Made by a program: the position numbers and the translations under genes | Notes under the pieces: model-generated | Database searches by the model: none | Seen by the model: the letters and a program-made list of their open reading frames with translations, nothing else | Told to the model about the DNA's origin: nothing | Part shown: positions 4,938 to 7,863 of the stretch, piece after piece | Layout of the letters: each line of letters starts with the position of its first letter | Position numbering within the stretch: position 1 is the stretch's first letter | UHGV virus genome: UHGV-0274038 | Source: a virus | Strand: one strand, 5' to 3' | DNA length: 24,177 bases

Positions 4938-5086
4938 ACATCTGAATTTCACAGCGCATCTCACGCGCATATTACATCACCCGAGCCTTTCAGAAAGTTG
5001 AGCCTGAGAACTGCCGTATATGGTGGCGACCATCTCGGGGCGGCTTTTCTGTGAGACAGGCTCACTTTCTAAAAGGTAAAGACGCT

Positions 5087-5575
5087 ATGAACCAATTAGA
5101 AGAAAAGCTTCAAAGAATGATTTCCTTATACAAGGAAGATAACTGCCAAAAAGTTCCTGAAAACATCGCAGAGTTAATGGAATTGGCAAGTGAATTTTCT
5201 GGCATGCTTAAGTCGTCAGGTGTTCGGTCAGCGTTCTTTGTTGAAATGCTGATGCACGGCGGACTTATGGCAACAATGAGACGTGTAATGGAAGACCAGA
5301 GAAAAGAACCTCCTCAGGTATACGTTTTGTCATCGAAGAAAACTGGGCTAACCAAAATTGGGTATTCATCCAACATTCCACAACGCATCAAATCGCTTGG
5401 CAACTCTGGACCAGACTGCTTGAAGCTTGAGTGCCTGATCCCTGGTGGAAGAGAAACTGAAAACATGCTTCATCGCAAATTTGCCGCAAAGAGAAAGCAC
5501 GGTGAATGGTTCGCCCTGTCCAAGGATGACATTGAGGGATTGAAATCTGTAGCGATTACTTCTGATGGCTATTAA
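5087..5575 (+). CDS. Accessory protein with C-terminal T5orf172 (GIY-YIG-like) nuclease domain and unrecognised helical N-terminal domain (162 aa)
   Basis: C-terminal half QVYVLSSKKTGLTKIGYSSNIPQRIKSLGN...ENMLHRKFAAKRKHGEWFALSKDD fits the T5orf172/Mug113 pattern (YVL...GL-KIG-S...R...E-LH-F...GEWF). N-terminal about 85 aa has no family I recognise. ATG at 5087 with AAAGG upstream; the ORF-track start at 5051 is non-ATG. Confidence 0.65.
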   Translation: MNQLEEKLQRMISLYKEDNCQKVPENIAELMELASEFSGMLKSSGVRSAFFVEMLMHGGLMATMRRVMEDQRKEPPQVYVLSSKKTGLTKIGYSSNIPQRIKSLGNSGPDCLKLECLIPGGRETENMLHRKFAAKRKHGEWFALSKDDIEGLKSVAITSDGY

Positions 5576-5612
5576 TGCTTGTTTAGAGCAATTTTCATAA
5601 CAACTCTTCATT

Positions 5613-5690
5613 ACAAAGCCCATCTACTGGTGGGCTTGATAATGAAACCGTGATTTACATCCCCACAATCCGGGTATGTAAAAGATAGTT
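5613..5690. repeat. Copy 1 of a degenerate direct repeat: hairpin AAGCCCA/TGGGCTT + GATAATG + CCCCACA..GGGTAT..TAAAAGATA
   Basis: Stem 5616..5622 with 5631..5637, then GATAATG 5638..5644. Shares core, flanking motif and downstream CCC-ACA/GGG-AT/TAAAAG blocks with copy 2. Confidence 0.45.
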
Positions 5691-5889
5691 CAGGCGAGAA
5701 CGGATTTAACTAAATCTGTGCGCCACCAGTTAACGGCAGTACCACGAAACAACCCAAGCCAGTAAGTGGGGAAATAACACCGGCAGCCACTGAAAGATGA
5801 ACCTCCTGCCTTATGGCAAAAAAGATTCTTTGTGGTGGCGGACTGATGGAAAGACATCCTAATTTCAGCCAAACATTGAAGGAGTTGTT

Positions 5890-5961
5890 ATGTCAGCAGA
5901 AGGTTTCAATAACCCATCAAAATTCCGGGATGAGTGGGATAGCAGCGTAAAGAGTAAGTGA
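5890..5961 (+). CDS. Small ORF candidate (23 aa, MSAEGFNNPSKFRDEWDSSVKSK) with canonical SD
   Basis: GAAGGAG 6 nt upstream of the ATG. Hydrophilic peptide lying between the two repeat copies. No known family; could be a leader peptide, a small protein or chance. Confidence 0.2.
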   Translation: MSAEGFNNPSKFRDEWDSSVKSK

Positions 5962-5968
5962 TGCCATC

Positions 5969-6060
5969 ACAAAAGCCATTCCCTACAGAGTGGCTTTGAT
6001 AATGGCTTATACCCTACACGGGATAACTTAACTGATATCCCTTTTAAAGGATAAAGGTAT
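5969..6060. repeat. Copy 2 of the degenerate direct repeat, with alternative pairings and a terminator-like hairpin
   Basis: Stem AAAGCCA (5972..5978) with TGGCTTT (5991..5997), then GATAATG 5998..6004. The segment AAGCCATT can alternatively pair with AATGGCTT (6001..6008). Followed by hairpin GGGATA...TATCCC (6020..6041) and TTTT. Confidence 0.45.
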
Positions 6061-6208
6061 TCAAGCCTGACACATCATGCGCTGTATCGTCGCCGTATTC
6101 CCGTATTAACAGAGACCGTAGCCCGACGGGGAACTCCTTCTGCGCGAGTGTGCGGGAATAATCAAAAACGATGCACACCGGGGTTACCGGGTACACATAT
6201 TTCATCAT
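6044..6208 (-). CDS. Hypothetical small ORF (54 aa) immediately downstream of ybcV
   Basis: MMKYVYPVTPVCIVFDYSRTLAQKEFPVGLRSLLIREYGDDTAHDVSGLNTFIL. Starts 45 nt after the ybcV stop on the same strand. No good SD and no recognised family, so low confidence. Confidence 0.2.
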   Translation of the reverse strand: MMKYVYPVTPVCIVFDYSRTLAQKEFPVGLRSLLIREYGDDTAHDVSGLNTFIL

Positions 6209-6253
6209 GCCAGCGAGTCCGGTTCTGGCACGGAAGAAACCGGACGTTATGAT

Positions 6254-6664
6254 TTAGTGCGGAAATATTTGTGTAGTGTTCTGAATGTTCTCAGTAAAGA
6301 GTAATGAATTATCAAAGGTATAGTAATACCTTTTGTTTTCGTGGATATTTGTAATCCATCTGAAAACCCCTGCTGTAGCAAGATTTTTCCTGTATTCGTA
6401 AAATGATAACTCTCCTGATTTGAATCCTTTTAATGTGGCTTCTATAAGGCATTTATTTTTTGAAAATCTTACATTTACAACCTTACCCTGTCCTTTTATT
6501 AAAACCGTATTATCGTTTTCAAGAACAAGATGAATATTCTCTGTGGCTAAATAGTAAATGTAATGTGAGACATTGTGACGTTTTAGTTCAGAATAAAACC
6601 AGTGATAGTTTAAATTATTTCGCACTTTATCGAATATTTGTTTAAAAATGGCAACCTGAGCCAT
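6254..6664 (-). CDS. ybcV: YbcV-like protein (DUF1398), 136 aa
   Basis: [58 protein letters not shown]...[25 protein letters not shown] matches recalled DLP12 YbcV. SD GGAAGG 7 nt upstream of the internal ATG chosen as start. Confidence 0.8.
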
Positions 6665-6721
6665 TGTAGTACCTTCCATGTGATATGAAGGTACCTAGTC
6701 TGCACGATTATCTAAATTGCT

Positions 6722-6955
6722 TCAATCTGGTCTGACCTGCTTTCTGAGCAATTCAGTAATGTCACTCTTTTCTTTGTTTGCTTCAGGCGAAACTCTTTTT
6801 TCTGAGCACAGTCTTCGGCGGCAGGCTTCAATGACCCAGGCTGAGAAATTCCCGGACCCTTTTTGATCAAGAGCGATGTTAATTTGTTCAATCATTTGGT
6901 TAGGAAAGCGGATGTTGCGGGTTGTTGTTCTGCGGGTTCTGTTCTTCGTTGACAT
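6722..6955 (-). CDS. ylcI: YlcI-like small protein (DUF3950), possible ribbon-helix-helix DNA binder, 77 aa
   Basis: MSTKNRTRRTTTRNIRFPNQMIEQINIALDQKGSGNFSAWVIEACRRRL... has a strand-helix-helix pattern. Sits upstream of ybcV on the same strand, next to cos. Confidence 0.6.
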   Translation of the reverse strand: MSTKNRTRRTTTRNIRFPNQMIEQINIALDQKGSGNFSAWVIEACRRRLCSEKRVSPEANKEKSDITELLRKQVRPD

Positions 6956-7099
6956 GAGGTTGTCCCGTATTCAGTGTCGCTGATTTGTATTGTCTGAAGT
7001 TGTTTTTACGTTAAGTTGATGCAGATCAATTAATATGATACCTGCGTCATAATTGATTATTTGACGTGGTTTGATGGCGTAGATGCACGTTGTGACATG

Positions 7100-7343
7100 C
7101 AGATGATAATTATTATCATTTTGCGGGTCCTTTCCGGCGATCCGACAGGTTACGGGGCGGCGACCTCGCGGGTTTTTGCTATTTATGAAAATTTTCCGGT
7201 TTAAGGTGTTTCCGTTCTTCTTCGTCGTAACTTAATGTTTTTATTTAAAATACCCCCTGAAAAGAAAGGAAACGACAGGTGCTGAAAACGAGCTTTTGGG
7301 CCTTTGTCGTTTCCTTTCTCTGTTTTTGGCCGTGGAATGAACA
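7100..7343. promoter_or_regulatory. cos: cos region (cosQ, cosN, cosB with terminase and IHF binding elements)
   Basis: Flanks of cosN match the recalled lambda cos region up to the Nu1 start. Individual R and I elements not delimited. Confidence 0.6.
7155..7166. other. cos: cosN cohesive-end site (GGGCGGCGACCT)
   Basis: Sequence ...CCGACAGGTTACG|GGGCGGCGACCT|CGCGGGTTTT reproduces the lambda right-end/left-end junction with the 12-nt cohesive end, 178 bp upstream of Nu1. Confidence 0.85.
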
Positions 7344-7863
7344 ATGGAAGTCAACAAAAAGCAGCTGGCTGACATTTTCGGTGCGAGTATCCGTACCATT
7401 CAGAACTGGCAGGAACAGGGAATGCCCGTTCTGCGAGGCGGTGGCAAGGGTAATGAGGTGCTTTATGACTCTGCCGCCGTCATAAAATGGTATGCCGAAA
7501 GGGATGCTGAAATTGAGAACGAAAAGCTGCGCCGGGAGGTTGAAGAACTGCGGCAGGCCAGCGAGGCAGATCTCCAGCCAGGGACTATTGAGTACGAACG
7601 CCATCGACTTACGCGTGCGCAGGCCGACGCACAGGAACTGAAGAATGCCAGAGACTCCGCTGAAGTGGTGGAAACCGCATTCTGTACTTTCGTGTTGTCG
7701 CGGATCGCAGGTGAAATTGCCAGTATTCTCGACGGGATCCCCCTGTCGGTGCAGCGGCGTTTTCCGGAACTGGAAAACCGACATGTTGATTTCCTGAAAC
7801 GGGATATCATCAAAGCCATGAACAAAGCAGCCGCGCTGGATGAACTGATACCGGGGTTGCTGA

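Follow-up and report, generated by a model that had tools for sequence, protein, structure and literature searches.

How are two degenerate hairpin repeats in the late region of a prophage to be read when no gene model explains them? The repeats lie in the 24,177-nucleotide (nt) DNA of UHGV virus genome UHGV-0274038 (hereafter the window, meaning this whole stretch), which is the late region of an Escherichia coli lambdoid prophage with its Q-dependent late operon. The hairpin locus is located between the lysis cassette plus an accessory gene and the cos/terminase region. An earlier note, made from the sequence alone, had described the repeats as bracketing a mini-open reading frame (mini-ORF) led by a Shine-Dalgarno sequence, and was correct in stating that no gene model explains them; it offered small RNAs (sRNAs), terminators, recombination sites, a protein-binding site or a switch as possible roles. 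Judged from sequence comparison, both copies are members of one large family of predicted, conserved RNA stem-loops, here called hairpin A, in the late polycistronic mRNA of temperate Enterobacterales phages.

Both copies are on the plus strand and were modeled as follows.

5607..5646, plus strand: hairpin A copy 1, inverted repeat I2; minimum free energy (MFE) -22.2 kcal/mol, z score -6.1; match to covariance model R1 at 5609-5645.
5963..6006, plus strand: hairpin A copy 2, inverted repeat I1; MFE -22.4 kcal/mol, z score -5.6; match to covariance model R1 at 5965-6005.

The repeat finder placed the arms at 5607-5622/5631-5646 in copy 1 (16 nt, 88% complementary) and at 5963-5981/5988-6006 in copy 2 (19 nt, 79% complementary). 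Copy 1 consists of a lower stem (TT)CATTA/TAATG(AA), a 2x2 internal loop CA/GA, and a 9-bp upper stem AAGCCCATC/GGTGGGCTT capped by the tetraloop TACT. Copy 2 has an extended lower stem GCCATCA/(T)AATGGC with one C.A mismatch, an internal loop CA/GA, and a 10-bp upper stem AAAGCCATTC/GAGTGGCTTT with the loop CCTACA. Both are long hairpins of 16-19 rungs, and in neither case did any of 200 shuffled sequences fold as well. The 7-bp stems of the earlier note are real, and AAGCCCA/TGGGCTT versus AAAGCCA/TGGCTTT is a true compensatory change between the copies, but the helices are longer than supposed, with 14-17 pairs. The shared GATAATG, which had been placed directly 3' of the stem, is really the 3' strand of a conserved 5-bp lower stem and pairs across the 2x2 internal loop with CATTAC in copy 1 or CATCAC in copy 2.

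The distance from copy to copy is 356-360 bp and the mini-ORF (5890-5961) lies between them, both as described earlier. The homology of the two repeats is borne out as well: the local alignment of copy 1 with copy 2 (~40 nt) scored 28, against 14.7 ± 2.3 in dinucleotide shuffles, and none of 2000 shuffles scored as high. The covariance model R1, built from relatives, gave two convincing matches in the 24-kb window, at 62.9 bits (E = 8e-16) for copy 1 and 49 bits (E = 9e-12) for copy 2. A third match (6311-6336, minus strand), inside the DUF1398 coding sequence, was at chance level (E = 0.39). This DUF1398-internal match (ACAAA...TTGATAAT) lies in the 3' part of the coding sequence, and a similar one is seen in K-12 ybcV (L252 7237-7287, minus strand); such hairpin-A-like matches in DUF1398/ybcV, with E values of 0.4-0.75, are probably chance.

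Copy 2 had also been credited with mutually exclusive structures. The alternative pairing does exist, between AAGCCATT (5973-5980) and AATGGCTT (6001-6008), but its best structure reaches only -13.8 kcal/mol versus -22.4 kcal/mol for the canonical fold. Because the alternative helix is 8.6 kcal/mol worse and has an ensemble probability of about zero, a riboswitch-like element is not supported. The alternative helix is weaker in the L003-type variant and absent from copy-1-type members.

The family is distributed as a mosaic, as seen by BLAST against E. coli genomes and phage records. The copy-2 segment 5962-6070 (109 nt) is found alone in thousands of genomes, and the copy-1 hairpin is present in HK97, HK620, Sf6, phage L, ST160, ES18, and Stx2 phages. 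Variants were collected with an anchored pattern, by which IMG/VR and a set of one genome for each GTDB species were scanned. They share the lower stem and carry different upper stems with mutually complementary arms, such as GCCC/GGGC, GGGY/RCCC, GCGY/GCGC, GGCC/GGCC, and AGCCAC/GTGGCT. True members were seen in Escherichia, Salmonella, Shigella, and Enterobacter, in Klebsiella-group phages, and in Morganella, Xenorhabdus, Siccibacter, Buttiauxella, Leclercia, and Pseudocitrobacter. Those matches from Clostridia and Bacteroidota that did not fold lay in ABC-transporter coding sequence and were discarded as chance.

No catalogued RNA accounts for the hairpins. Rfam 15 at the gathering score gave no match in the whole window, either hairpin included. 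When E values up to 10 were admitted over 5400-7400, only a sub-threshold mir-458 match (5945-6019, minus strand; 22.2 bits against a gathering score of 59, E = 0.16) touched a hairpin, copy 2, and it was taken as chance; IsrK had no match in the same search. The known prophage sRNAs Pas, AgvB, AsxR, and STnc100 do not match and are tied to other positions, near Q and holin. Full-text literature searches with the hairpin sequences returned no paper, and no published description was found.

The consensus of the family is a lower stem (C/U)AUUR...YAAUG, a 2x2 loop 5'-CA/5'-GA, and a freely covarying 9-10-bp upper stem, with a terminal loop that is usually a tetraloop and often UNCG. Members were gathered with lower-stem anchors and a folding filter. 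In alignment A1 (31 distinct sequences), 98.6% of the cells were paired and covariation was 0.357, versus 0.165 in shuffles (0 of 500 as high), while slid registers paired at most 52%. Alignment A3 (56 distinct sequences), which includes sequences from Enterobacter, Morganella, Xenorhabdus, Siccibacter, Buttiauxella, and Leclercia, was 98.5% paired, and 9 of its 14 pairs had changed on both sides, in 99 cells; on every measure 0 of 500 shuffles were as high, and slid registers reached at most 53%. R1 also recovers diverged members in HK97, HK620, and P22 (UAUUGCAGAGGCCAUUYAAUGAGUGGYCUCGAYAAUG), in whose lower stem an A-U pair becomes G.U (P22) and G-C (HK97, HK620) while the CA/GA loop is kept. 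When the loop was left free as NN/NN in the pattern scan, it was CA/GA in 139 of 142 plus-strand instances, and two instances had the internal loop closed to Watson-Crick pairs.

The same alignments tell the strand and the molecule. There are 43 G.U cells, which become A.C mismatches on the other strand, and pairing amounts to 98.6% on the plus strand versus 88.9% on the minus strand, a wobble asymmetry that speaks against a minus-strand RNA, which was rejected. Tetraloops were found in 48 of 67 distinct hairpins; 22 of these are UNCG (UACG, UGCG, UUCG, UCCG), mostly closed by C-G. The UNCG tetraloop is an RNA-specific stabilizing motif. The helix also extends into unrelated flanks, with at least 2 extra pairs in 53% of 140 instances versus ~14% expected, so that the total helix typically has 16-21 stacked rungs (14 model pairs, the 2x2 loop, and the extension). 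Since compensatory changes, G.U asymmetry, UNCG loops, and helix extension all favor the folded plus strand, these patterns indicate that hairpin A is a plus-strand (late-mRNA) RNA structure under selection. The view that the repeats are a structured nucleic-acid element rather than neutral spacer therefore holds.

Hairpin A is always sense to the flanking late genes and follows their ends closely. Of 70 distinct upstream flanks, 42 have a stop triplet whose end is 0-2 nt from the hairpin; at divergent loci the distance from the end of the preceding ORF is 1-8 nt. For copy 2 it is 1-3 nt, counted from the stop of the mini-ORF (TGA 5959-5961). Copy 1 differs in lying 31-33 nt after the stop of the accessory gene.

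5051..5575, plus strand: T5orf172/MUG113 (GIY-YIG-like) accessory cassette gene; Pfam T5orf172 3e-10, MUG113 7e-15; RefSeq 'GIY-YIG nuclease family protein'.

Often the hairpin is followed, 3-6 nt on, by the Shine-Dalgarno sequence of the gene that comes next. The upstream genes are unrelated among phages, comprising Rha, KilA-N plus hkbL, Rz, gp49, T5orf172, and small ORFs, and in Morganella- and Xenorhabdus-type phages the gene for the major tail-tube protein (Phage_tail_2 plus Big_2). In this last context a DUF6246 gene comes next, its Shine-Dalgarno sequence again 3-6 nt after the hairpin, so the settings include both the lysis-to-terminase junction and the tail-tube/DUF6246 gap. Because of this diversity of contexts we reject a T5orf172-specific binding site, which the earlier note had proposed to examine; hairpin A also occurs in phages without an adjacent T5orf172 gene.

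The conserved internal loop and lower stem, next to an upper stem that covaries, could still be the RNA site of another specific protein, of the host or widely shared among phages, which would control translation or coupling of the flanking cistrons. The tight spacing, with a stop 0-8 nt upstream and a Shine-Dalgarno sequence 3-6 nt downstream, suits such a site. However, no candidate protein co-occurs with hairpin A, the neighboring genes are wholly different between phages (T5orf172 in particular being excluded), and podo- and siphoviruses with unrelated regulators both carry the hairpin, which leaves a translational protein site quite improbable.

A stable GC-rich hairpin directly after genes also recalls a terminator, one of the roles first offered. 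The stable GC-rich stem-loop of an intrinsic terminator is present and the U-rich tract is not: no T-run follows either hairpin, and a terminator scan of 5000-7400 calls neither copy. The tails are GAUAAUG after the upper stem and AAACCG or GCUUAUAC after the full stem, and also AAACCGUG, none of which is a U-tract. An atypical terminator or pause hairpin might nevertheless stop or slow polymerase that is not Q-modified and let Q-modified polymerase pass. In the lysogen it would shield the genes for packaging and structure from moron transcription or read-through. In the annotation of phage Ayreon a copy-2-type hairpin is marked 'terminator', P22-like late operons have intra-operon terminators of unknown role (PMC8022706), and an RNA species ends at the P22 copy. 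Against these stand the identical hairpin that the annotators of phage L left uncalled, the conserved lower-stem sequence and internal loop, which a terminator does not need, and the position between tube and chaperone genes, where termination would be harmful without antitermination. We regard termination or pausing as rather improbable.

Lambdoid morons are flanked by intrinsic terminators, a concept of the Hendrix laboratory. Like these, hairpin A marks the 3' end of accessory cassettes that were inserted into the late operon, but it has no U-tract, has a sequence common to unrelated cassettes, and occurs between essential tail genes as well. Paralogous sRNAs, another of the initial suggestions, are disfavored by the promoter scan, which found no site at or beside either hairpin, and by the place of the hairpins, which come right behind stop codons within the late operon. 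The CTCTTC upstream of copy 1 is not taken as boxA-like, since in most copies a stop codon occupies that place.

The flanks show a further property of the family. One and the same 35-nt hairpin can have as many as 8 upstream flanks and 7 downstream flanks that are unrelated, and therefore hairpin A is a discrete unit at mosaic junctions. O157:H7 prophages have one hybrid copy, in which the downstream sequence of copy 2 directly adjoins the exact copy-1 hairpin. What the slot between the copies contains varies, with the mini-ORF here, gp49 in a P22-like prophage, DUF551 in another, and another small ORF elsewhere. The earlier suggestion of recombination sites is thus upheld to the extent that the copies coincide with recombination junctions. 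The pattern of exchange is directly visible in these arrangements, and the process behind it we infer from them.

These same observations could be explained at the DNA level alone, by a recombination linker, of the kind that the modular theory postulates, or a small mobile palindromic unit that shuffles cassettes and has the copies as cassette borders. The identical hairpins in unrelated flanks and the varying slot fit this explanation, the O157 hybrid is as expected from recombination within TTGATAATG, and there is a precedent in T4-type phages, whose promoter-early stem-loop (PeSL) cassettes are repeated between genes and drive the shuffling of modules (PMC2839356). On the other hand, a pure homology patch needs no helix, whereas the folded plus-strand RNA is selected here; no transposase or recombinase, target-site duplications, or clean empty sites were seen; and hairpin A is without the promoter and functional terminator that define PeSLs. 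A purely DNA-level element is therefore unlikely.

The PeSL cassettes are the closest analog for the junction role (Arbiol et al. 2010, PMC2839356). They too are repeated, conserved intergenic stem-loops flanking small non-essential ORFs in plastic regions, where recombination between copies shuffles or deletes cassettes (PMC2839356), and the hairpin A copies likewise flank variable ORFs that are reshuffled, as in the variable slot, the O157 hybrid, and the unrelated flanks. PeSLs contain a strong sigma-70 promoter and an effective terminator, whereas hairpin A has no promoter found and no U-tract, and it has another sequence in another phage group.

Two cellular systems invite comparison as well. 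The attC sites of integrons act as folded single-stranded DNA recognized by IntI, with R''/L''-L'/R' boxes and GTTRRRY. Hairpin A shares with attC the imperfect palindrome after each cassette ORF, the conserved outer and variable inner parts, and the position at cassette borders, but its outer repeats are CATTAC...GATAATG with no GTTRRRY, the annotated neighborhood contains no integrase, and the UNCG loops and wobbles point to RNA. Repetitive extragenic palindromic (REP) sequences, bacterial interspersed mosaic elements (BIMEs), and enterobacterial repetitive intergenic consensus (ERIC) sequences are transcribed, repeated, imperfect palindromes after stop codons in enterobacterial operons and can stabilize the upstream mRNA. 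The intercistronic placement after stops and the repeated copies are common to them and hairpin A; their consensus is another one, and hairpin A is found in phage and prophage late operons with no RAYT-type transposase associated. Since a defining feature of each was tested and did not apply, we did not assign hairpin A to terminators, sRNAs, switches, attC sites, or PeSLs. We file it as an undescribed hairpin within the known class of intercistronic mRNA hairpins and junction cassettes of phage operons.

Between the copies lies a conserved block, which brings in an RNA species that ends in a member of the family.

5724..5858, plus strand: X core, conserved non-coding block; 127/135 identical (94%) to nt 50-186 of P22G.

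In 165 phage records, those of P22, HK97, HK620, Sf6, ST64T, and L among them, X is found with 90-99% identity, and a literature search with its sequence found PMC13397905 alone to contain it. P22G is a 204-nt plus-strand species in a 2026 small-RNA-seq study of P22 infection by Naaz et al., who called it from read coverage only, with 'no known function', and did not describe the hairpin family (PMC13397905). Its sequence comprises the 3' end of rha and then X, and ends in the 5' arm of the P22 hairpin, which is single in that phage and 3' of X.

Several readings of X itself were discarded. As coding sequence it has lost its start codon in L179, gained a stop in L056, and suffered indels; as structured RNA it folds no better than shuffles on both strands (z -0.2 to -1.3); as a rut-like C-rich tract it shows only a weak C>G skew (-0.07 to -0.15). 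Rfam also gave a weak match of X to Proteo-phage-1 (19.8 bits against 42, E = 1.4), which we regard as chance. On the minus strand, 5802-5823 inside X resembles a terminator, with a hairpin and a T-rich tail, and the record of phage L has a minus-strand terminator annotated at the corresponding position; this stem is weakened by a common T-to-A variant and has no covariation support.

The hairpins might then be processing borders of an sRNA precursor, from which X, as the P22G homolog, would be excised out of the late transcript to act in trans. P22G is abundant, lies on the plus strand, covers X, and ends in the hairpin; X is highly conserved; and in HK97 and HK620 two hairpins bracket X with no ORF between. 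Conversely, X stands without an upstream hairpin in P22 and several prophages, does not fold as noted above, and is absent from other places where hairpin A occurs (tail-gene contexts, many Enterobacter phages), and no target or seed is known. A trans-acting product of this kind is very improbable.

The explanation that we favor, and to which our comparative analysis gives about even chances, is that hairpin A is a cis-acting hairpin for processing of the late mRNA or protection of its 3' ends, and also a homology patch for cassette exchange. On the late transcript it would serve as cis-acting punctuation. Whether as a site of processing or as a barrier to exonucleases, it would define and protect RNA 3' ends and uncouple the stability of neighboring mRNA segments. 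With the central internal loop limiting it to one strand, an RNase III-like cut would leave behind a 3' hairpin that protects the RNA. Such processing or protection would fit the RNA species that ends at the P22 copy.

Substrates of RNase III in E. coli span about two helical turns, with a minimum of ~15 bp, and internal loops limit the cleavage to one phosphodiester, leaving protective 3' hairpins (PMC1540722). As a candidate substrate, hairpin A, with 16-21 rungs and a central internal loop, has this geometry.

In T7, the RNase III sites (R0.3 to R1.1 and others) are intercistronic hairpins of a phage polycistronic mRNA. Hairpin A is like them in this respect, as well as in its two turns and central internal loop, which are general properties of such substrates (PMC1540722). 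It shows no sequence similarity to the T7 sites and differs in its symmetric 2x2 CA/GA loop and its occurrence in temperate lambdoid and P22-like phages.

The homology patch would follow from the selection that keeps the 35-40-nt element nearly identical in many phages; such an element would also offer homology for cassette exchange. The exchangeable unit here, bracketed by the copies, would be the X/P22G-like block with the 23-aa micro-gene, and recombination between the copies would delete it, as in the O157 arrangement. This role would explain both the O157 hybrid and the variable slot between the copies.

Several points weigh against the favored explanation. The lower-stem anchors and the folding filter inflate the anchor conservation and the percentage of paired cells somewhat; chance pattern matches outside Enterobacterales almost never folded, and the diverged R1 members and the free-loop scan are the less biased evidence. 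Hairpin A was not found in phage lambda or in the K-12 prophages DLP12 and Qin, and the element is accordingly dispensable for the lambdoid life cycle. No conserved sequence is known to be required by RNase III, nor is conservation of the lower stem a known requirement of its substrates. RNase III alone leaves the near-invariant lower stem and CA/GA loop unexplained, and a different partner that recognizes the sequence may be the reason for them. P22G was reported in one small-RNA-seq study only, and its 3' end was called in the 5' arm and loop, not at the hairpin base. Finally, the accessory genes upstream at the lysis-to-terminase junction have no obvious need for extra mRNA stability.

A tentative, less probable reading takes up the sequence-specific partner: hairpin A would be an undescribed, sequence-specific punctuation motif of late operons in temperate phages throughout Enterobacterales, read via the CA/GA loop by a dedicated, probably host, factor, and would also serve as a cassette linker; together with X it may mark off a conserved, processed RNA of the late operon, the P22G family.

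The remaining features of the locus concern the mini-ORF and the sequences around the copies.

5880..5961, plus strand: micro-ORF cassette gene; Shine-Dalgarno sequence AGGAG at 5880-5884 and 23-aa ORF at 5890-5961, MSAEGFNNPSKFRDEWDSSVKSK.
5596..5606, plus strand: 11-nt block complementary to the Shine-Dalgarno/start region; inverted repeat I8, 100% over 11 nt with 5882-5892.
5654..5682, plus strand: weak hairpin TTTACATCCCC/GGGTATGTAAA downstream of copy 1; inverted repeat I13, z -1.2, not significant; a CCC/GGG-cored palindrome type.
6007-6026, plus strand: palindrome B1, TTATACCC-TACAC-GGGATAA.
6035-6054, plus strand: palindrome B2, ATATCCC-TTTTAAA-GGATAA; the two palindromes together, 6007..6054, rest on inverted repeat I4.

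The stretch had been called otherwise non-coding, which is not wholly so, since the 23-aa mini-ORF is conserved at the protein level. A 23-aa homolog with 61% amino-acid identity and synonymous changes lies beside the small terminase gene of the P22-like phage APC_JM3.2, and further homologs with 52-55% identity are seen in Proteus and Cronobacter phages. The micro-ORF is probably a genuine, mostly unannotated microprotein gene. The complementarity of 5596-5606 with 5882-5892 reaches 14 nt with one bulge and is paired in the MFE fold of 5590-6075. In this predicted fold, 5596-5606 could be a long-range anti-Shine-Dalgarno for the micro-ORF; the complementarity is not conserved in L036, a relative with a different upstream flank.

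Downstream of the hairpins, the earlier note had seen similar blocks in both copies, that of copy 1 being the hairpin at 5654..5682. Pairwise their similarity is at chance level, with 1106 of 3000 and 996 of 3000 shuffles scoring as high. Both blocks contain a CCC/GGG-cored palindrome of a type that recurs after hairpin A in other phages. Related TTATCCCC...GGGGATAA palindromes occur in 22 of 83 downstream flanks, versus 4 upstream and ~2 in shuffles, many of them from Enterobacter phages. In P22-like and HK97-like phages, B1 and B2 make up the leader that precedes the orf80/DUF2560 gene on its 5' side; in L004, L006, and L007, B1/B2 is followed directly by ...GGATAAACGGAGCCAACAATG. One or two copies of TTATCCCC-N4-8-GGGGATAA palindromes also stand upstream of DUF2560/terminase genes, in L025, L095, L105, L197, and others too. 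Because the half-site sequence is conserved and does not covary, the TTATCCCC/GGGGATAA palindrome suggests a putative protein-binding DNA site.

In P22 (L130 1560-1930), the hairpin and a B1-like block are followed by a minus-strand insert, which by its position we take to be the ORFan moron pid with its own bidirectional terminator. If this identification is true, P22 would illustrate that the site after the hairpin is an insertion slot.

The wider neighborhood is common in E. coli. The interval 5500-6300 is 100% identical to chromosomal prophages of many E. coli strains by BLAST, and some part of it was matched in 4003 of 5426 complete E. coli genomes. The plus-strand annotation of strain 214-4 runs NinB...RusA, QuuD, EssD, RrrD, Rz, and then 'GIY-YIG nuclease family protein', with a porin on the minus strand between QuuD and EssD. 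The GIY-YIG gene is followed by an unannotated gap, DUF1398 and YlcI/YnfO (minus strand), NohD, terminase, and portal. A non-coding stretch at 6060-6250, between the hairpin module and cos/DUF1398, is present in L002, L003, and L128 and seems widely shared. Further on, a lambda-type cosN GGGCGGCGACCT at ~7155-7166 (plus strand), upstream of nohD/nu1 (7344), confirms a lambda-like cos packaging module.

Some of the most thoroughly studied model phages (P22, HK97, HK620, Sf6, L) carry hairpin A, as do Stx2-converting phages, and the region has a match in roughly half of complete E. coli genomes, yet the hairpin has no Rfam family. Its covariance model provides a precise landmark for the lysis-to-packaging junction and for the accessory ('moron' or defense) slot in prophage annotation. 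A role of hairpin A in RNA processing or stability would make it the first conserved mark of post-transcriptional punctuation described from the late operons of lambdoid phages, and would account for discrete late-region RNAs such as P22G. If it also guides cassette exchange, it would provide a concrete case of the short, conserved sequences that the modular theory of phage evolution has long postulated at junctions.

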